From positions 608,001-672,000 of the forward strand of contig CAVXGK010000001.1 in assembly GCA_963761305.1 (NCBI GenBank): a DNA stretch of 64,000 nucleotides, in the 5' to 3' direction. The DNA comes from an uncultured Gemmatimonadaceae bacterium. GTDB taxonomy: Bacteria > Gemmatimonadota > Gemmatimonadetes > Gemmatimonadales > Gemmatimonadaceae. Each line of letters opens with the position of its first letter. The first letter of the stretch is position 1. Of this stretch, positions 20,506 to 29,574 are shown in pieces. The notes below the pieces were generated by a model. The model searched no databases. It saw only the letters and a list, made by a program, of their open reading frames with translations, and had not been told where the DNA came from. Position numbers and translations under genes: made by a program.

Positions 20506-20785
20506 TGGATCTCTCCCTCGAGCAATGTCGGTTGGCAAACGGGTGCCGGGGTTTTGAACCTGCTTCGGTTCCACGCCAGCTTCAATCCCAGCTTGCAAAA
20601 GGATTGCAAACTCGAGGGCGAGCCGTTACACGGCCGCGTTCGTCGCTCGGCACCTGCCGGGCTCGGCCGGATTTTGGATCCTTGGCGCCAACGGGAGAGT
20701 AGGAGCAAGTACGCATATCGAGGGGCTGGGCCCCGGCCACATGACTTGGGCGCTCGCCCCTTCGCATTCACAGGATGGAGTGGTC

Positions 20786-21238
20786 ATGAGAAAACTGTCA
20801 TTCATTGCGGCAATAGCCGTGTCACTGGCCGGTGCTCAGGCCGTTCACGCCCAGGCGCCTCGCGATTCGACGGCGCATCGCTGGGGCGGACGCGGAGGGC
20901 GCGTCGGACCGGGGACGATGGAGCACGCGCTCCTCAAGAACATCTCGCTCAGCGACGCCCAGAAGTCGCAGCTCGCACAGCTCCAGAAGTCCGAGCGGTC
21001 GTCGATGCAGGCCGACGCCAAGTCGGGACGCGCCGATTTCGACGCGATACGCAAGGCGCGCCAATCCGGCGACACCGTGACGGCGAATCGGCTGATGCAG
21101 GAGCAGCGCGCCAGGATGGAACAGCGATTCACGGCGCACACGGCCGCGGTCCGCGCGATGCTCACGCCCGATCAACAGAAACAGCTCGACGCGAACGTCG
21201 CCGAGCTGAAAACACATCAACTGCACCAGCGACGCTAG
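20786..21238 (+). CDS. Spy/CpxP family periplasmic chaperone-like protein
   Basis: Signal peptide; LSDAQ and LTPDQ (LTXXQ) motifs; GGAG RBS. Confidence 0.85.
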   Translation: MRKLSFIAAIAVSLAGAQAVHAQAPRDSTAHRWGGRGGRVGPGTMEHALLKNISLSDAQKSQLAQLQKSERSSMQADAKSGRADFDAIRKARQSGDTVTANRLMQEQRARMEQRFTAHTAAVRAMLTPDQQKQLDANVAELKTHQLHQRR

Positions 21239-21303: not shown

Positions 21304-21681
21304 TCATTTTGGTTTCGCGATTCCGCCGTGGCTCGAGCAGGCGCCTTGCCCGCCCTTGCTCATCGTCCCGTCGGTGCACTTGACCATCGCCGTCTTGGTC
21401 TTGCTGGACGTTTTCGCCTTGGTCGTGTCGGCCGGTTTCGGTGACTTCGGCGTGGAGGTCGCCGCTTTCGTCGTCGTCGTCGAAGCCGATTTCGTTCCGG
21501 CCTTGGTCGTGTCGGACTTCTTCACGCCGCCGTGACTCGAGCATGCGCCGCGGCCCGTCGAGGTGGAGGTCGCGCCGTCGTTGCAGGTCACGGTGCCCGC
21601 CTGCTTCACCTGCGCGCCTGCCGCCGACGTGAGACACGCGAGCGCGACGACTGAGAGGAACGCCGAAACACGCGTACGCAT
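21304..21681 (-). CDS. Secreted DUF3761-like protein with two Cys/His repeats
   Basis: Two CxDG...GACSSHGG repeats joined by a Thr/Lys-rich linker; signal peptide; AGGAG RBS. Confidence 0.8.
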   Translation of the reverse strand: MRTRVSAFLSVVALACLTSAAGAQVKQAGTVTCNDGATSTSTGRGACSSHGGVKKSDTTKAGTKSASTTTTKAATSTPKSPKPADTTKAKTSSKTKTAMVKCTDGTMSKGGQGACSSHGGIAKPK

Positions 21682-21763
21682 AGCTGATCTCCTGGTTGAG
21701 GCAGGTGGATGGTCGACGACTCGCCCTGTTCGACCTTGTCGCCGGAGCAAACGTCACACGCCG

Positions 21764-24526
21764 CTACGACGCCGCCGGCGACCGCTCCCTCTTCACGAAC
21801 GACTGCTGCGCCGAGTCGCCGGCCCGTTCGCGCGATTCGTAGTTGCCGTCGGGCCGCAGCTCCCACGCGGTCGGATCATCGAGGTACAGCGCGAGGATGT
21901 CGTCGAGTCGGCGGCGATGGTCGGCGGAATCGATCGGCACGAGCACCTCGACTCGCCGCCGCAGATTTCGCGGCCGGAGGTCTGCCGAGCCGATGAAGTA
22001 CCGCGGCGTGCCGCCGTTCGCGAAGCGATAGATCCGCGAGTGCTCGAGGAACCGCCCGACGATCGACGACACGCGGATCCGCTCGCTGCGCCCGGGAATC
22101 CCCGGACGGAGCGTGCAGATTCCGCGCACCACGAGATCGATCTCCACTCCGTCGCTCGACGCGCGATACAGCGCGCGTGCGACGTCGGGGTCCGAGAGTC
22201 CGTTGATCTTCGCCGTGATTCGTGCCGGGCGGCCCGCTCGCGCGTGCGCCGCTTCGCGATCGATTTGTTCGATGATGCCCGGCAACAGATGCTGGGGCGC
22301 GACGAGCAACGACCGTTTGGTGCGGCGCGGAGCCGCCGACACGCCGGTCAGTTCGTTGAACAGATCGGCGACGTCGTCCGCGATCTCGTCGTTCGTCGTG
22401 AACAGGCTCAGATCGGTGTACTGCTCGCCCGATCGCGTGTTGTAATTCCCGGTGCCGATGTGCACGTAGCGCTTGAGCGCTCCCGCCGCGCCGCCCGGGT
22501 CACGCCGGACGACCAGCGTCACCTTCGCGTGGTTCTTGAAGCCGACGATGCCGCGAACGACGTGGCCGCCCGCCGCCTCGAGCGCGCGCGCCCACCCGAC
22601 GTTGACCTCCTCGTCGAAGCGCGCCTTGAGCTCCACGAACACGGTGACCGCCTTGCCCCCTCTTGCCGCGGCGAGCAACGCATCGGCGATCGGCGACGGA
22701 GTGCCGATGCGATACAGCGTCATCTTGATCGCCGCCACGTCCGGATCGGCCGACGCTTCGCGCAGGAACCGCACGACGGTCTCGCCGAACGAATCGAATG
22801 GATGATGCGCCAATACGTCTCCCGCGGCGAGCGCCGCGAAGACGGTCGCGTCAGCGGCGAAGGGCCGACCCGCCGCGAACGGCGGATACGACCCGTCGGC
22901 ACGCGCCGGAAACCGCAGATGCGTCACGCCACGCAGGTCCAACAGGCCATCGGTTTCATCCACGTCTGGCAAGGGTGGCGCGCCGGCCGCCGCTTGCTCG
23001 CGTCGCACGTTCTCGAGCAACAGCGCGCGCACGATCGCCGGCATTCCGCGTTCGACCTCGAGGCGCACCGCGACCCCCTGGCCGCGCGACGTTGTCGCCC
23101 GCTCGACTTCCTCGAGCAGGTCGTCGGCGTGCTCTTCGTCGAGCTCGATCTCCGCGCTCCGCGTCACGCGAAACGCGTACGCGTGTTCGACGGTGGCGTC
23201 CGGATACAACGCGTCGAGGTTGCCTCGGATGACTTCTTCGATCGGGACGAACGTTTTCGCGCCCTCGTTCTCGCCGCCCGCGGCGAAAAAGCGCGGCAGC
23301 GTCGCCGGTAGCTCGAGCTCCGCGAAGCGCGGCGGACCGCCGGCCCGCTGCCGGAGAATGACCGCCATCGAAAGCGACAGGTGTCCGAGGCGCGGCAATG
23401 GGTGGCCCGGACTCAGCGTCATGGCGAACGGCGTCAGGAGCGGCTGGATCTCATCGCGGAAACGATCGGCGAGCGCCGCCCGGCCCGCCTCCGGCAACGC
23501 CTCCCACGTCGCGACGTTGACTCCCATCGACGTCATCACCGCGCGACAACGGTCGAAGCAGACCGCCTGACGGGCGGAGATCGACGCGGCCGCTTCCGCA
23601 ACCGCCGCGACCTCCGCGGCGGCCGACAACCCGTCGTCGGCGCGCTCGCCGGGCTCGTCGCGAGTGGAGGCGAGCAGCCCGGCCATTCGCACCATGAAGA
23701 ACTCGTCCACGTTCGCGCCGACGATCGACAAAAATCGCAAACGTTCGCGAAGCGGCGTCGACTCGTCCTCGACCAGCGACAGCACGCGATGCTGGAACGC
23801 CAGCAGGCTCAACTCGGCGTTGAAGAATTCGGGTCCGTCGCCGTCGGACATCGGAACCGGTGCGCGCAGGAAGCGGTCGGAATACGCCGCGCCGCGCGGC
23901 ATGTCCTCGAGGCGCGCCCACTTGATTGCCAACTCCGCCCGCTCGTGCGTCGACACGGCGGACCGGCGAACGCCGTGATCCTGCTCGAGCGCGTGCTCGA
24001 GCAGCTGCAATTCGGACGCGTCGCCCCGCAGGCAATGCGCGCACATCTGATAGAATCGCGCGGCGGTTCCGTTGCGGCGCACGGTGACGCGATCCAGGTG
24101 CACGCTGAGCCGCGGCCGGCGCAACCAGTCGAGCGACGCGCGCCGCGTGAGGCGGTCCACCTCGAGATCGACGCGCACTTCGAGCAGCGACGGATCCACG
24201 ATGCCGCGAATCCGCTTCGACACGACGGTCTCCGCCGCCATCGCCGACTGCGCGTCGCCGGCCGCGACGCGCGCGTCGACGCGCGTCTCACCGCCGTCCG
24301 GTTCGCCGCCGGCGATCCGCAGGGAGAGCGCCGCGCCGCCTTTGGCGTCGAGCCGCAGCCGGCACACCACGCCTCGCCGACGGAGCGAATCGTCGACCGT
24401 GTCGAGATACAGATCGCGATGCAGCGAGCGACGCGCTTCGCCGGCGGCGATTCCCGGGGGCAACGGCCCTGAGGCGAGCGCGCCGAGTTGGTCAGCGGAC
24501 AGCAACTCGCACCGAAACTCGGTCAT
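21764..24526 (-). CDS. ppk1: Polyphosphate kinase 1 with N-terminal CYTH-like domain
   Basis: NAELSLLAF, ERLRFL, NVDEFFMVR, phospho-His HHPFDSF, ELKARFDEE, HAKV, GTGNYN, GRFLEHSR, SADLRPRNL. First ~200 aa carry DLYLDT.D..L...G..CRLR (CYTH). Confidence 0.93.
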   Translation of the reverse strand: MTEFRCELLSADQLGALASGPLPPGIAAGEARRSLHRDLYLDTVDDSLRRRGVVCRLRLDAKGGAALSLRIAGGEPDGGETRVDARVAAGDAQSAMAAETVVSKRIRGIVDPSLLEVRVDLEVDRLTRRASLDWLRRPRLSVHLDRVTVRRNGTAARFYQMCAHCLRGDASELQLLEHALEQDHGVRRSAVSTHERAELAIKWARLEDMPRGAAYSDRFLRAPVPMSDGDGPEFFNAELSLLAFQHRVLSLVEDESTPLRERLRFLSIVGANVDEFFMVRMAGLLASTRDEPGERADDGLSAAAEVAAVAEAAASISARQAVCFDRCRAVMTSMGVNVATWEALPEAGRAALADRFRDEIQPLLTPFAMTLSPGHPLPRLGHLSLSMAVILRQRAGGPPRFAELELPATLPRFFAAGGENEGAKTFVPIEEVIRGNLDALYPDATVEHAYAFRVTRSAEIELDEEHADDLLEEVERATTSRGQGVAVRLEVERGMPAIVRALLLENVRREQAAAGAPPLPDVDETDGLLDLRGVTHLRFPARADGSYPPFAAGRPFAADATVFAALAAGDVLAHHPFDSFGETVVRFLREASADPDVAAIKMTLYRIGTPSPIADALLAAARGGKAVTVFVELKARFDEEVNVGWARALEAAGGHVVRGIVGFKNHAKVTLVVRRDPGGAAGALKRYVHIGTGNYNTRSGEQYTDLSLFTTNDEIADDVADLFNELTGVSAAPRRTKRSLLVAPQHLLPGIIEQIDREAAHARAGRPARITAKINGLSDPDVARALYRASSDGVEIDLVVRGICTLRPGIPGRSERIRVSSIVGRFLEHSRIYRFANGGTPRYFIGSADLRPRNLRRRVEVLVPIDSADHRRRLDDILALYLDDPTAWELRPDGNYESRERAGDSAQQSFVKRERSPAAS

Positions 24527-24574
24527 GCCCGCATCATAGCCGCCCGGGGCGGGAGGCAGGAACCGGCGACTCGT

Positions 24575-25708
24575 TCAGCGCTTGCCGAGGCAAGCCTCGA
24601 CGATGTCGGATTTGGCGTTCTTCGGGTTGTCGATCGTCTTGTAGAACTCGTCGAGGTATTTGGTCGTCTCGTCGACGATCTTCGGCTGCAGCAGCGCACC
24701 GACTTTGTCGTGGTAGAGCGCGTAGATCGCGTCCTTCTTGGAGTCGAACAGCGCGAACGCCTTCGGGTATTCCGCGTCGGGAGCGCAATAGCCGCGATAC
24801 AGCCGGTCGCGAACGACATGGATCCGCAGGTGAGGGTCGGTGGTGGCGTAGCGTGCGTTCACCAGCCCGGAGAAATCGAAGTCCCGGGCGATCGGAATAG
24901 GATCTGTTCCGTCAGTCTTGGTGAACAACTCGATGTTGTGGAGTCCCGACACCGAAAAGTCGGTGTTCCCGATGAGATATTCGAAGACTCCCATCATGAC
25001 CATCGGACCGGGCTGCATGTCATCGGGCCCGGCGCCCTTGATGTCGAGAAGCTTGCCGCCGAGGCGGGCCGCCATGCGCCCGGGATCCTCGGAAATGAAG
25101 GCGTAGCGGGTCGTCAACGGTTTGCCGCTCGCGCTATCGACGTACGTGACGCGCAGCGCGCGAGCCGCGTGCGTGTTGTGCGTGATCGTCCAGTAGATCC
25201 GCCACGCCTGCAACTCCTGCAGCACGTACTGTTCGTACGTGTCGTCGTCGCGGCAGAAGTTGGTGAGCTTCGGCTTGTTCAACCCGGCGAAGATCGTCTT
25301 CTTCGTGTTGTCCTTGGAGAAGTCGAGCCGGATCGGCGGGAACTCGCAGTGATTGAGACGCCAGATGCCGTGCGTCTTGAGCTTGAGCGACAGCACCTCC
25401 GGCGCCGACGCGCCGGGCGGCGTGTATGCGATCGTCGCGTCGCGCCACGGTGCCTGGTCGTCCTTGTCGCCGCGGATGCGCTTGATGTTCAACGTCAGCG
25501 TGATCGGCAGCGGATCTTCGCTGGCGAAGAACTTGGAGAGCGGCGCCGTGTCGTCGGGCGCCCGATCGGGCTTCGCCGCTTTGGGCTTCTTCGTCGTTCC
25601 CTGCTGCTGCTGGCCGACGGCGGGCTGCATGGCGCACAGCCCCGCGCCGATGGCGAGGAGCGCGGAAGCCGCCCACAGTCGCCAAGGAACGCCTCGATGC
25701 TCGATCAC
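24575..25708 (-). CDS. Secreted atypical kinase-like protein (CotH-like)
   Basis: Signal peptide; KTHG..R, KPKL, QELQAWRIY, FISED, IGNTDF...HNIEL...PIARDFDFS follow the CotH-type motif order. GTG start inferred. Confidence 0.6.
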   Translation of the reverse strand: MIEHRGVPWRLWAASALLAIGAGLCAMQPAVGQQQQGTTKKPKAAKPDRAPDDTAPLSKFFASEDPLPITLTLNIKRIRGDKDDQAPWRDATIAYTPPGASAPEVLSLKLKTHGIWRLNHCEFPPIRLDFSKDNTKKTIFAGLNKPKLTNFCRDDDTYEQYVLQELQAWRIYWTITHNTHAARALRVTYVDSASGKPLTTRYAFISEDPGRMAARLGGKLLDIKGAGPDDMQPGPMVMMGVFEYLIGNTDFSVSGLHNIELFTKTDGTDPIPIARDFDFSGLVNARYATTDPHLRIHVVRDRLYRGYCAPDAEYPKAFALFDSKKDAIYALYHDKVGALLQPKIVDETTKYLDEFYKTIDNPKNAKSDIVEACLGKR

Positions 25709-25749
25709 GTGATCTCCCGCGCGGATGAGGTGGAGAGACAGCGGGTACG

Positions 25750-26790
25750 CTACAACAGCTCGGCCTCGACCATGTTCCTTCCACCGGCGACGCGCAGCAA
25801 CGCCAGCAGCTCGTCGGGGCCACTTTTCTTTTTCGGCATAATGACGTAGTCGATCACCGTCGTGCCGTCGTCGGAATCCGCCAGCGCGGCGAGCTCCCAT
25901 TTCTTGGTCGCGTCGTCGAGCCGCGCCTCGAGCACCGGCTGGGTCATCATCGGCTCGGTGATCCGCACGCGAATCCGGCATTCCACCTTGTCGCCGTCAC
26001 GCTCCTCGGCGTCCGGGCTGTGCTCGCGAGCGCGGCGCCACGCGCGCTGGGCGATGCCCTCGAGCTGCTCGGAGGTCATCTCGCTCAGCACCTCGTCTTC
26101 GATGCGCGCCACGAAGGTGCCCGTCCGCGCCAATTCGCGGGCGCGCTGGAGTCGCCGCTCGCCGAGCTTGCCGTCGAGCGCCACCGGCGTGCGACCGAAA
26201 TCCGCGGTCCACAGCGCGAAGATGAGCGCGTTGAAGGCGACCGAGATCACCGCCGCCACGGGAAGGTCCACGGCGGCGGCGATGCCAAGTCCCATCATCA
26301 GGAAGATGTAGGCGGCGTCCTTGCTGTCGTCCAACGTGTTTCGGAATCGAACCGCCGCCGCGATGCCGCCCAGGCTGAAGGCCAGCGGGAGGCTGTACTT
26401 CACCATCGCGACGATGCCCGCGACGACGACCGGCAGCACGATGAGAAGTTGAACGACCGATTGCTGATAACCGCGGCGCGACCGAGTCAGCGTGTACACC
26501 CAGGCGACCGGCAGCGACAGCAGCGCCGAGCCGAGCATCGCCAGCGCCACCGTCGCCGCCAGCGTTCCCTGTCCGACTTCGGGGAGAATGACGTTCTTGC
26601 CGGTGCTCCGGACCGCGTCCGGACCGGTTCCGAACAGCGCGTCGAGCGACGTGTCGGTGATGACGTGCGTGCGCGGCAGATACCGCCACGCCAGCGCGCC
26701 GGCGACCGCCAGCCCGATGTAGTAGAGGATGACCCTCAGTATGACTCTGTTGGCGGGCGTTGCGGCTGGCGCAACCGTCCTCGTAGCCAT
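25750..26790 (-). CDS. DUF4956-like membrane protein
   Basis: Multi-TM; AFSLGGIAAAVRFRNTLDDSKDAAYIFLMMGLGIA matches the DUF4956 signature; soluble C-terminal domain. Confidence 0.8.
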   Translation of the reverse strand: MATRTVAPAATPANRVILRVILYYIGLAVAGALAWRYLPRTHVITDTSLDALFGTGPDAVRSTGKNVILPEVGQGTLAATVALAMLGSALLSLPVAWVYTLTRSRRGYQQSVVQLLIVLPVVVAGIVAMVKYSLPLAFSLGGIAAAVRFRNTLDDSKDAAYIFLMMGLGIAAAVDLPVAAVISVAFNALIFALWTADFGRTPVALDGKLGERRLQRARELARTGTFVARIEDEVLSEMTSEQLEGIAQRAWRRAREHSPDAEERDGDKVECRIRVRITEPMMTQPVLEARLDDATKKWELAALADSDDGTTVIDYVIMPKKKSGPDELLALLRVAGGRNMVEAELL

Positions 26791-26885: not shown

Positions 26886-27461
26886 TTAACCCGACGGCGG
26901 CCGCGCTCCGCGGCCGGATCCGCCGCTCTTCCGCGCATCCTCATCCTCGATTCTCTGTTCTGCTGCCGCCTCCAGCGCGTGCGCCTGGTCCAACTGCTTC
27001 GACGACAAGAGCGCGTAGGCCTGATCGCGACCCGACGCGTTGTTTTCCCGAACCGCCGCGGTCACGTCGCGCACGAGCGAATGCGCCTCGTTCAATGAAT
27101 CCCGGCGCTCGGCGCTCCCTTCGCTGAACACGGGGCCGTTCTTGAACAGCCGCTGGACCGAGTCGAGCTTGCGCAACAACGGCGAGTTGGTGGAGTCGAG
27201 CGTGCGCTTGATGGCGATGACGCGCATGAACTGCGTGTCCGACAGCGCGAGGTCCTGCCGGTGTTGGACGAGCAGGTTGACGGCATTCACGACTTCGGGG
27301 ATGTCGACCCCCGCCGCTCGTGGAAGCGCCGACGCGCCGCGGTTGCTCCCGCCCCGGCCGCCGCGGCCCATTCCCCCCTGTGCGGCCGCCGCGTCCGGCG
27401 ACGCGCTGACCAGCGCAACCGCCAGCATGATCGCGCTCGACACCGACCTGTAGCTCACCAT
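26886..27461 (-). CDS. Secreted Spy/CpxP-like helical protein
   Basis: Signal peptide, GRGG segment, LALSDTQ and LLSSKQ LTXXQ-like motifs. Confidence 0.65.
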   Translation of the reverse strand: MVSYRSVSSAIMLAVALVSASPDAAAAQGGMGRGGRGGSNRGASALPRAAGVDIPEVVNAVNLLVQHRQDLALSDTQFMRVIAIKRTLDSTNSPLLRKLDSVQRLFKNGPVFSEGSAERRDSLNEAHSLVRDVTAAVRENNASGRDQAYALLSSKQLDQAHALEAAAEQRIEDEDARKSGGSGRGARPPSG

Positions 27462-27568
27462 TTCCGCGCCTTTGTGAACCGAAGAACAAACACACCCGTG
27501 CCACCATGAATGACACGGGTGCGCCCGACTGCCCCGACCCGGCTCGGCCGCTACAGCTCGTACGGCTG

Positions 27569-27919
27569 CTACTGCACCAGGACAGACCCCGTCTGCCCAT
27601 GGATGGTACAGCTGTACGCGAACGTTCCCGCCGTGCCGAACGTCCGGCTGAACGTAGCGCCTCCCGTCAGATTCGCCGAAGCCGTATCCGCGAACGTGAC
27701 GTTGTGCGCGGTGCCCCCGGAATTCCAGGTCCACGTGACCGTGGTGCCGACCGGAACTTGGATGTTGGCCGGATCAAAGAAGTCGTTTCCGACGGAAACC
27801 TGATTGGTCTGCACGGGCGGACCCGACGCCCCCCCACCACTCGGACTTGTCGAGTCACTGCCGCACGCGGCAACCGCAACGATCGCGGTGATCGCGAAAA
27901 GAGCCCAAACCTTACGCAT
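27569..27919 (-). CDS. Plastocyanin/cupredoxin-like lipoprotein
   Basis: VAAC lipobox; FDPANIQVPVGTTVTW, AHNV, YSCTIH copper motifs. Confidence 0.87.
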   Translation of the reverse strand: MRKVWALFAITAIVAVAACGSDSTSPSGGGASGPPVQTNQVSVGNDFFDPANIQVPVGTTVTWTWNSGGTAHNVTFADTASANLTGGATFSRTFGTAGTFAYSCTIHGQTGSVLVQ

Positions 27920-28016
27920 GTCCCTCTCCCGATGATTGAAGACGACACCCTCTTCGATATCCACGCATCGGGAGGCGGGTTCCGGACTTCACGAATCGGC
28001 GGTCAAGATCCGGCAA

Positions 28017-29354
28017 TCAGGTGAAGAGATCTTCGCGCGTCGGCGGCAGGTTGGTTTTGCCGCGGCAGGGCTTCGACAGCAGCGTTTGCAGAACGTTCAA
28101 GTCGCCGCGCGCGAACCCGCGTTCCGCCGCCGTCATGTAGAGCTGCCACACGCGAAATGCCGGCTCGCCGACGAGCGCGATGGCGCGATGCCGGCACCGG
28201 TCGAGCCTCGCGATCCATTCGCCGAGCGTTCGCGCGTAGTGCTCACGAAGGCTCTCCACGTCGCGCGTTTCAAACCCCACGGCTTCGGCCGCGGAAACCA
28301 CGGCGTGAAACGGCCCGAGTTTCCCGTCCGGAAATACGTACTGGTCGATGAATGCGTCGGCCCGCCAGAGTCGACGTAGCACGGACTCGCGCCAACCCAT
28401 CGGATGCGCCGCTTGCACGCTCACGATCCCGTGATTGAGAAAGAGTCCACCCGGAACGAGCGCGCCGAACGCCGACGCGAAGTAGTCCGCGAGGTGATCC
28501 ACGCCGACGTGCTCGACCATGCCGACGCTCGCCATCTTGTCGAACGGCCCGAGCGCGGCGACGTCGCGATAGTCGCGCAGTTCGACGCGGCACGAGTCCG
28601 ACAGGCCGGCTGCGTCGATGCGCTCCCTGGCGAGCTCGGCCTGTTGCGTACTCAGCGTGACGCCCGTCGCGCGCACGCCGTAGTGCGACGTCGCGTGCAG
28701 CAGGAGCGCCCCCCAACCACATCCGATGTCGAGGAATCGTTCGCCGGGTTGGAGTCGCAGCTTTCGGCAGACGAGATCGAGTTTCGCCTCCTGAGCCTCG
28801 TCGAGCGTGTCGTCGTCGTGCTGGAAATAGGCGCACGAATACACAAGGCGCCGGTCGAGCCATAGCTGGTAGAACTCATTGCCGACGTCGTAGTGGTAGC
28901 TGATCGCCGCGCGATCGCGCGACGGGTCGTGCTTGTTCCCCGCCGGCGTCACCTTCGCCGCCGCACGCCGGCCGCGCACGTCGGTCTTCCCGTTTCGATG
29001 CGGGCTTGGGAGCGACAACAGGTCGCGCGTCAGCGACAGCAGCGCTCGCGCCGAGGAGAGTCGTCGCTTGATCGCTTCACCCAGGGCGACGGCCGCCGCG
29101 AGCTGGCCCTCCACGTCGACCACGCCGGACAAATAGGCTTCGACGATCGAGAGCTCGCTGGGCGGCAGCAGCATCTGCCGCAAGGCCGACGGCGTTCTGA
29201 GGACGAGCGTAAACGGAGCCGGGTCGATCCCGGCCTCCTCGACGGTTCCGTCCCAGTAGCGCACGCCGAACGCGCGCTCGACCGGGGGACCGAACAGTAT
29301 GCCGACGGCGTGCTGGCTACGTGGAAGTGCCGATCCCGCGTCGTGCCGATCCAC
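28017..29354 (-). CDS. cfa: Cyclopropane-fatty-acyl-phospholipid synthase family methyltransferase
   Basis: ISYHYDVGNEFY, YSCAYF, LDIGCGWG, SVGMVEHVG, FIDQYVFP, REHYARTL. Start uncertain. Confidence 0.9.
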   Translation of the reverse strand: MDRHDAGSALPRSQHAVGILFGPPVERAFGVRYWDGTVEEAGIDPAPFTLVLRTPSALRQMLLPPSELSIVEAYLSGVVDVEGQLAAAVALGEAIKRRLSSARALLSLTRDLLSLPSPHRNGKTDVRGRRAAAKVTPAGNKHDPSRDRAAISYHYDVGNEFYQLWLDRRLVYSCAYFQHDDDTLDEAQEAKLDLVCRKLRLQPGERFLDIGCGWGALLLHATSHYGVRATGVTLSTQQAELARERIDAAGLSDSCRVELRDYRDVAALGPFDKMASVGMVEHVGVDHLADYFASAFGALVPGGLFLNHGIVSVQAAHPMGWRESVLRRLWRADAFIDQYVFPDGKLGPFHAVVSAAEAVGFETRDVESLREHYARTLGEWIARLDRCRHRAIALVGEPAFRVWQLYMTAAERGFARGDLNVLQTLLSKPCRGKTNLPPTREDLFT

Positions 29355-29574
29355 GTCGCTATCGCCTGAGCGATCGCATGATTTCGATATCGCGTTTGCG
29401 CGGTGGTGTCGCAAGACACAGCACATGGTGGACCAACGTCACCGGCGGGCGGACCGGACGGCAATCGTCGCGTGCGCTTCCGCTCGCCTGGATGGAGCGG
29501 GCGCATCCCCTTCCCGCGCACGCGGCAGCGATCCAGAATTGAGCCGTTCCCCTCGTGCCCAATCAGGAGGCCCG

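Follow-up and report, generated by a model that had tools for sequence, protein, structure and literature searches.

What brings an integral membrane protein, a kinase-fold protein predicted to be exported and a polyphosphate (polyP) kinase together in a single gene cluster? The question is raised by a 64,000-nucleotide (nt) stretch of DNA, hereafter the window, from an uncultured Gemmatimonadaceae bacterium (assembly GCA_963761305.1, contig CAVXGK010000001.1, positions 608,001 to 672,000 of the forward strand). The minus strand carries three co-oriented open reading frames (ORFs), which encode, in that order, a DUF4956 protein, a kinase-fold protein and a PPK1 with an additional N-terminal domain. 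The intergenic gaps measure 41 nt between the DUF4956 and kinase genes and 48 nt between the kinase and PPK1 genes, in keeping with the initial annotation, which had placed both below 50 nt. The locus is a real, conserved module, and with its PPK1 it represents a novel form of the VTC-DUF4956-CotH gene set, itself uncharacterised. Its features are as follows.

25750-26790, minus strand: DUF4956 inner-membrane protein of the Gemmatimonadota subfamily, 346 amino acids (aa); PF16316 above cut-off.
24575-25708, minus strand: atypical kinase (377 aa, GTG start) for which a CotH fold and export are predicted; from an AF2 (AlphaFold) model and fold searches.
21764-24526, minus strand: 920-aa PPK1 with an N-terminal CYTH/TTM domain (whole ORF); from TIGR03705 and the N-domain model.
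23900-24526, minus strand: CYTH/TTM-fold N-domain of PPK1, residues 1-209; from a predicted model, with PF01928 in relatives.
21764-23827, minus strand: PPK1 core, residues 234-920, the second PPK1 of the genome; TIGR03705 above cut-off.

The first gene had been annotated as a DUF4956-like protein with multiple transmembrane (TM) segments, and PF16316 matches it at 40.3 bits against a cut-off of 30.6; the atlas clusters that it matches are likewise Gemmatimonadota DUF4956. Hydropathy discloses four clear hydrophobic segments, and the protein probably harbours up to six TM helices. The conserved motif AFSLxG..R148-F-R150..D155..D158 retains R150 in 81 and D158 in all of 83 homologues. The C-terminal soluble domain may, by analogy with a published homologue, be ACT-like. 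A PDB sequence search with the DUF4956 profile returned nothing significant, and a complex prediction of residues 10-346 with the CYTH domain (1-210) gave a score of 0.00, which speaks neither for nor against contact. Most members of the subfamily bear a helical insert of ~55 residues at about positions 205-260; it is absent from the DUF4956 copies of operons ordered kinase, DUF4956, CYTH-Nudix-like-PPK1.

The second protein, proposed initially to combine a signal peptide with a kinase fold, has no match in Pfam (PF08757, the CotH family, included) or NCBIfam, and PDB sequence searches with the protein and its profile gave nothing significant. Its AlphaFold model (mean predicted local distance difference test score, pLDDT, 84.6) is closest to Bacillus cereus CotH (5jda; Foldseek E 5e-7), with a VIA Z of 19.2 and a root mean square deviation (rmsd) of 3.3 over 270 residues, against Z 12.5 for the runner-up; the fold check thus agrees with the proposal, and the catalytic Asp positions are kept. 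The motif G-N248-T-D250...H257-N258...D276-F-D278 is unchanged in all 81 close homologues. Across a distant alignment of 136 sequences, at roughly 28-47% identity, D250, N258, D278, E165, E207, C121 and C152 are invariant, while K147, H257 and D276 are kept in at least 90%; PF08757 is matched at E<=0.1 by 12 of these relatives, the best at 1.9e-5. Motif order against the 5jd9 sequence, rather than superposition, pairs D250 and D276 with D228 and D251 of CotH, mutants of which are reported to be inactive (10.1101/469122). The N-x-D...H-N...P-x(1-3)-D spacing parallels D228...D251, but the window kinase is only 11-12% identical to Bacillus CotH, has four conserved cysteines and a signal-peptide-like N-terminus, and belongs to no spore. 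That N-terminus (residues 1-32) is basic, then hydrophobic, and a crude hydropathy rule detects a comparable start in 105 of the 120 close homologues and in 121 of the 136 distant ones, as against 3 of 119 CYTH-PPK1 controls. The protein is probably an active atypical kinase, its predicted export being read from hydropathy, and belongs to a family that bears no annotation and comprises ~4000 clusters at 50% identity (a threshold of E<=0.001 gives 3985 representatives). An ATG at 25981 was rejected as its start, as it overlaps the DUF4956 gene and homologues begin near 25708. Elsewhere, CotH-fold kinase genes form tandem arrays of two or three copies with no DUF4956 gene nearby (L106:6043-9446, L098, L102), and some genomes with such arrays have a DUF4956::PPK1 fusion at another place.

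The third gene encodes, as first suggested, a PPK1 with a CYTH-like N-domain. TIGR03705 matches residues 234-910 at 684.7 bits (cut-off 465.85), the four PPK Pfam domains are present (PF13089, PF02503, PF17941 and PF13090), and the equivalents of the catalytic His435 and His592 (KNHAK, LEHSR) line up with Escherichia coli PPK1 (1xdo), the roles of these residues being described in 10.1101/567040. Unlike this canonical enzyme, the window PPK1 possesses an extra 230-aa CYTH N-domain, is linked or, in relatives, fused to an integral membrane protein, and belongs to a lineage apart from the housekeeping ppk1 of its genome. In a quick, unrooted tree of 84 PPK cores, from which P0417 and partial cores were left out, the dedicated PPK1s split from a small sample of eight housekeeping PPK1s on a branch with 99% support in the Shimodaira-Hasegawa-like approximate likelihood ratio test (SH-aLRT); 22 DUF4956::PPK1 rows fall on one branch and 12 CYTH-PPK1 rows on another (100% each). 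At about 23790-23830 (minus strand) the window's clade reads ELSLLAFQ, versus ELSWLAFN in the housekeeping copy.

The model of the N-domain (pLDDT 89.3) adopts the eight-stranded triphosphate tunnel of the CYTH/TTM fold. It resembles YgiF (Foldseek E 3.9e-10) and bh2851 (VIA Z 15.8, rmsd 3.5 over 176 residues; Z 15.4-15.8 for the two proteins) more than Vtc4 (Z 11.9). PF01928 is matched at E<=0.1 by all 17 aligned N-domains, at best 7e-9, the window's own copy reaching E 0.026, below cut-off; a PDB sequence search with the N-domain profile found nothing significant. Active CYTH/TTM enzymes bind metal through an ExExK signature, and this signature occurs in none of the 84 and none of the 17 sequences of the two alignments: Glu at position 3 is variable, position 5 is invariably Arg, and position 160 is mostly Gln in the window's family. 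Positions R5, R37, R58, R125 and R128 are basic in every row of both alignments. Acidic residues are required in active metalloenzymes of this fold (PMC3440374); the domain is likely a pseudo-enzyme with a non-catalytic, polyanion-binding or docking role. An active triphosphatase was rejected for want of ExExK, and a VTC domain because the fold is nearer YgiF and PF09359 finds no match on the PPK1 protein at E<=1. The N-domain shares fold and basic tunnel-type residues with the triphosphatases E. coli YgiF and bh2851 and with CYTH-CHAD proteins, but its late acidic strand is eroded and it is fused to PPK1 rather than to CHAD; CYTH/CHAD genes are known beside polyP enzymes and operons (10.1101/567040; PMC3440374). 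The domain is moreover dispensable: four loci ordered DUF4956, kinase, PPK1 leave no room for it, and it is missing from 16 of 19 long DUF4956-PPK1 fusions. The suggestion that the CYTH tunnel is a necessary hand-over step for polyP is therefore not supported as first put, given also the lost signature and a fold nearer YgiF and bh2851 than Vtc4. Outside the window's family the CYTH domain usually precedes an additional domain of ~135 aa with weak Nudix resemblance (atlas features match NUDIX clusters at 0.92, although few counts are shared) and no Pfam or PDB match, in which what we take to be the Nudix box glutamates look lost.

Is the association of these genes more than a chance encounter? 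Within the genus, 17 of 25 genomes contain the kinase, and the DUF4956 gene lies upstream in all 17 and CYTH-PPK1 downstream in 15. A family-level survey covered the best 80 of 590 genome loci, both flanks being present in 62: 29 harbour DUF4956 and CYTH-PPK1, 17 DUF4956 without CYTH (three of them with a CYTH-less PPK1) and 16 neither, and none has CYTH-PPK1 without DUF4956. Close homologues are labelled Gemmatimonadaceae by their sources. At the phylum level, one draw of 251 genomes was searched with five queries and the listed places were crossed. The kinase rows use 91 of 96 places (four tandem copies and one fragment dropped); the CYTH rows comprise 51 places, one split match having been merged and 12 weak matches dropped, two of which were fetched and showed no PPK1 nearby. 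Fusion of CYTH to PPK1 was read directly in most of the 51 places and inferred from frame length in a few. The DUF4956 rows hold 117 places at E<=4.4e-36 and 14 weaker ones of classical type, leaving out second-domain pieces and nine unlisted rows, and 116 places hold a barrel-bearing partner family, described below, which is found in 85 of the 251 genomes.

Thirty-seven of the 51 CYTH-PPK1 places have DUF4956 within 6 kb, 23 a soluble kinase within 3 kb and 17 the kinase-like/Omp85-like (barrel) partner within 8 kb; DUF4956 together with kinase or barrel partner is seen at 30 and none of them at four, so that 47 are linked. Among genomes with a dedicated PPK1, 48 of 53 carry a Gemmatimonadota-type DUF4956. 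Gene orders vary: kinase, DUF4956, PPK1; kinase, PPK1; DUF4956, barrel, PPK1; barrel, DUF4956, PPK1; and DUF4956, Ser/Thr kinase, PPK1, barrel. Given the same order in 15 of the 17 kinase-bearing genus genomes and its recurrence in other orders in other families, the three-gene arrangement is beyond chance, and the synteny expected at the outset is conserved. Seen from DUF4956, 43 of the 117 places have a soluble kinase and 45 a barrel partner, none having both (88 kinase-like in all), and 31 have a kinase-like gene plus PPK1. The trio is not obligatory: of the 43 genomes in which DUF4956 and kinase genes adjoin, 24 yielded no dedicated PPK1.

The nearest known relatives of the module are found among the accessory genes of pel loci in Gram-positive bacteria, where CotH, a VTC-like polyP polymerase and DUF4956 occur together (10.1101/768473; Streptococcus intermedius SIR_1592-1594, 10.1101/2024.04.20.589940). 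Common to both sets is a DUF4956 gene whose neighbours encode a cytoplasmic enzyme of polyP-synthase type and a CotH-fold kinase that is secreted or, in the window, predicted to be. The window differs in that a true PPK1, whose CYTH domain lacks the signature, stands where the VTC gene would be; its kinase is from a divergent family that falls short of the PF08757 cut-off, its DUF4956 protein belongs to a longer subfamily, and no pel genes lie nearby. DUF4956::PPK1 fusions, moreover, occur in relatives. A VTC gene is found within 4 kb at none of the 117 Gemmatimonadota-type DUF4956 places, with a dedicated PPK1 near or fused at 44, as against 13 of the 14 classical-type places, none of which has CYTH-PPK1 alongside; in the 93%-complete source genome no VTC, CYTH or CotH Pfam match was found. 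On these counts PPK1 appears to replace VTC as the partner of DUF4956, as the initial annotation had supposed, polyP being the product common to Vtc4-type polymerases and PPK1 (10.1101/567040). Corynebacterium glutamicum has matches to VTC, DUF4956 and CotH in its genome. The classical set is present in this phylum as well, at L162 and L174; at L162:2082-12463 a VTC-DUF4956 pair stands with a CotH-related beta-helix protein, and flippase- and sulfate-activation-like genes, identified by eye, adjoin. No description of CYTH-PPK1 or DUF4956-PPK1 was found in the literature covered, which excluded most subscription journals and supplementary files.

Direct fusions of DUF4956 to PPK1 go beyond what had been noticed in the window. 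Seven of the 251 genomes, from three genera, encode the TM part of DUF4956 and PPK1 in one continuous ORF, the two being joined by a short linker. Twenty-two long DUF4956 homologues from a protein collection comprise 16 DUF4956::PPK1, three DUF4956::CYTH::Nudix-like::PPK1, two DUF4956::Ser/Thr kinase (P0397, P0398) and one doubtful DUF4956::kinase protein. Both PPK1 catalytic His motifs are present in the 19 PPK1 fusions, and the DUF4956::PPK1 proteins retain the TM part of DUF4956 and lose its C-terminal soluble domain. At one locus (L166) a soluble kinase gene lies directly upstream of the fusion. Gene-calling artefacts were dismissed as an explanation, given one ORF in seven genomes, a short linker and one clade; the single DUF4956::kinase fusion, P0396, was set aside as evidence, since its junction reads like a frameshift. 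Each of the seven fusions faces a CHAD-ppk1-ppx cluster, complete or in part, and at L163:116-5864 and L164-L169 the fusion gene converges on ppx-ppk1-(SixA-like)-CHAD. In one genus a Ser/Thr kinase gene is interposed between DUF4956 and CYTH-Nudix-like-PPK1 (L127, L128, L132, L133, L136, L138, L139 and L141), the one such kinase scanned bearing TPRs. The presence of the well-understood PPK1 in the VTC slot, and its fusion to DUF4956 in relatives, provide independent support for DUF4956 working with polyP.

The fusions and the linkage counts bear on an account in which the split genes of the window are co-regulated phosphate-stress genes that lack physical coupling and the fusions are a lineage-specific side development. 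Each gene does occur apart from the others and the DUF4956::PPK1 fusions make up one clade. Against this stand a linkage that has outlasted much reshuffling and exchange of partners in different families and classes, the near confinement of CYTH-PPK1 to DUF4956/kinase neighbourhoods (the 47 of 51 places above) and the existence of two fusion architectures; we regard mere co-regulation as the least probable of the explanations considered.

What, then, might the module do? The kinase-like protein, predicted to be exported, is the most constant neighbour of DUF4956 and would need a phosphoryl donor outside the cytoplasm. Since two unrelated polyP-type synthases alternate with DUF4956, and one of them is joined to its TM portion in fusions, the simplest common thread is that polyP is produced at the membrane. 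The account that we favour, tentatively and at somewhat less than even chances, is membrane-coupled polyP synthesis and export feeding the periplasmic CotH-fold kinase. The three genes would be co-transcribed and PPK1 would make polyP from ATP at the inner membrane, on DUF4956; the Arg-rich pseudo-CYTH domain (plus the Nudix-like domain in relatives) may bind the chain or dock the enzyme, and could be dropped. DUF4956 would act as a membrane conduit or anchor, oligomers of which may translocate polyP outward via the RFR..D..D motif. The kinase might then phosphorylate an envelope substrate, the donor being polyP itself or a nucleotide that polyP recharges, and exported phosphatases encoded nearby would reverse or recycle the phosphorylation; where no dedicated PPK1 exists, the housekeeping enzyme would supply the polymer. 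The scheme recalls the eukaryotic VTC complex (Vtc4/Vtc3/Vtc1; PDB 3g3q, 7ytj, 8i6v) in its proposed coupling of polyP synthesis to a membrane protein, in its TTM-fold domain and, in the DUF4956::PPK1 fusions, in the union of synthase and TM segments in one chain, as in Vtc4. It differs in that catalysis would fall to the PLD-fold PPK1 and not to the tunnel, the DUF4956/MgtC-like TM protein has no shown homology to Vtc1, and an SPX domain is lacking.

Several observations weigh against this account. The dedicated PPK1 is less steady than the kinase-like partner (44 and 88 of 117 DUF4956 places, respectively): 57 places have a kinase-like neighbour and no dedicated PPK1, and it is present in only 48 of 96 DUF4956 genomes. 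Of the remaining 48 genomes, 47 give ordinary PPK1 matches, which come within 6 kb of DUF4956 in G214 only. DUF4956 is not within 2.5 kb of 48 of the 91 kinase places, the exported kinase was not seen in the fetched stretch of six of the seven fusion loci, and the DUF4956::PPK1 fusions form one clade and hence stand for few events. The phylum searches score 8-12 candidates per genome, many assemblies are fragmented and related genomes are not independent; misses in these counts consequently mean 'not found'. K147 and E165 can be read, from sequence conservation, as the putative ion pair of ATP-binding kinases, a resemblance that does not favour polyP as direct donor, and Bacillus subtilis CotH phosphorylates with ATP (10.1101/469122). 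Finally, the TM domain of a DUF4956 homologue has been assigned to MgtC, a regulator rather than a transporter, and the same authors suggest that polyP may remain cytoplasmic (10.1101/2024.04.20.589940).

The prominence of the kinase could instead mean that DUF4956 supplies ATP, or ATP/ADP exchange, to an ATP-using periplasmic kinase, with PPK1 running backwards as a local ATP recharger from stored polyP. The PPK1 reaction is reversible, and PPK1 would in such a role be optional, matching its nesting inside the commonest pairing, that of DUF4956 with a kinase-like gene; the kinase also retains the Lys/Glu/Asn/Asp set of nucleotide-binding kinases. The classical partner is nonetheless a VTC-domain protein, whose characterised eukaryotic relative spends ATP in making polyP, and for the small DUF4956 protein, with its four to six TM segments, no resemblance to nucleotide carriers was found (no significant PDB match). 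We judge ATP supply unlikely.

The MgtC assignment opens a different path: DUF4956 might be an MgtC-like sensor or scaffold, not a channel, that tethers and regulates the attached PPK1, VTC or Ser/Thr kinase while polyP stays inside, regulation following the phosphate status of the periplasm, which the exported kinase-like proteins and phosphatases would govern. Besides the homologue's MgtC and ACT domains (10.1101/2024.04.20.589940), this would suit the weak PF02308 match (E 0.001) on the classical DUF4956 of L162, the Ser/Thr kinase fusions (2 of the 22 long homologues), the one genus whose operons set a TPR-bearing Ser/Thr kinase between DUF4956 and CYTH-PPK1, and the frequency of DUF4956 with no linked polyP synthase. 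It accords poorly with the alternation of two unrelated polyP-type synthases and with fusions in which the TM part survives and the C-terminal soluble domain is lost, whereas an ACT-based regulator would have to retain the latter; nor does it provide the exported kinase with phosphoryl groups. A purely regulatory DUF4956 strikes us as doubtful, a shade less so than ATP supply.

Further clues come from elsewhere in the genome and phylum. The source genome holds a second, ordinary ppk1, the housekeeping copy, which adjoins ppx, pit and phoU-like genes, and two further DUF4956 genes, at L028:8260-12964 and L029:1623-10057 (contig C2). Each of the latter precedes one or two unannotated proteins of 860-910 aa, followed by a metallophosphoesterase, and a phytase-like propeller is encoded at one of the two loci. 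The 860-910-aa proteins have signal-peptide-like N-termini, a D-x-D-R-H...D-R-D segment and a C-terminus weakly resembling Omp85 (E 1.6e-5 at best). They are treated here, on motif grounds, as a putative second kinase-like partner: neither Pfam nor the PDB gave a match to a kinase fold, and hhalign aligned D-x-D-R-H...P-I-P-R-D-R-D with the kinase catalytic segment at a non-significant probability of 0.1%. A PafA-like alkaline phosphatase gene is divergent from DUF4956-kinase, sometimes from the kinase alone, at 33 of 56 family loci (for example L068:8141-9883); it does not lie beside the window's locus. That the other neighbours are phosphate enzymes (PafA-like phosphatase, metallophosphoesterases, the phytase-like propeller and, beside the fusions, CHAD-ppk1-ppx) counts in favour of the export account.

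Such surroundings would also fit traffic in the inward direction, whereby polyP or phospho-compounds from the environment would be caught by outer-membrane barrel proteins together with phosphatases of the periplasm or the kinase-fold protein and brought in through DUF4956, and the polyanion-binding CYTH and Nudix-like domains would feed PPK1 for ATP formation. The Omp85-like barrels, the PafA-like, metallophosphoesterase and phytase-like neighbours and the two apparently dead polyP-hydrolase-type folds on PPK1 agree with scavenging; the VTC polymerase of the classical set points to synthesis, and it is the other ppk1 that sits in the Pho-type cluster (pit, phoU-like, ppx). We consider import very unlikely.

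The immediate surroundings of the trio are less constant. Upstream of DUF4956 lies one further feature.

26886-27464, minus strand: small protein with a signal-peptide-like N-terminus; weak Metal_resist match, E 0.05.

This gene ends 95 nt ahead of the DUF4956 gene and is kept in 10 of the 80 related loci, those of highest kinase identity; it is possibly co-transcribed with the trio, its membership being uncertain. Together with a cupredoxin lipoprotein gene and a cyclopropane-synthase-like gene it spans 26886-29426 (minus strand), a group kept in 7-10 of the 80 loci. Just downstream of the trio, a DUF3761 protein is encoded at 21304-21750 (minus strand; present in 3 of the 80), and a Spy/LTXXQ-like gene at 20741-21238 (plus strand) is convergent. 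The window scan found no sigma-70-like promoters and no Rfam matches; terminator-like matches were not used, their positions falling inside genes or on opposite-strand genes.

The significance of the module lies in two questions that it touches: how bacteria export polyP, and whence secreted bacterial kinases obtain their phosphoryl groups. The route by which polyP leaves bacterial cells has been described as unresolved between lysis, active export and co-secretion (2026 preprint, PMC13484657). The widespread VTC-DUF4956-CotH set bears on both questions, and the DUF4956::PPK1 fusion offers a one-gene reagent with which that of export becomes directly testable. A positive outcome would have a bearing on soil phosphorus cycling, the hosts being labelled Gemmatimonadota, abundant bacteria of soils. 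The boldest form of the favoured account, which we hold to be rather improbable though a little less so than a regulatory DUF4956, is that DUF4956 is the first dedicated bacterial polyP export channel, fed by VTC, CYTH-PPK1 or a fused PPK1 and powering polyP-using extracytoplasmic CotH-fold kinases. If this were true, the joining of DUF4956 to PPK1 would mean that an analogue of yeast Vtc4 had arisen by convergence within a single gene.

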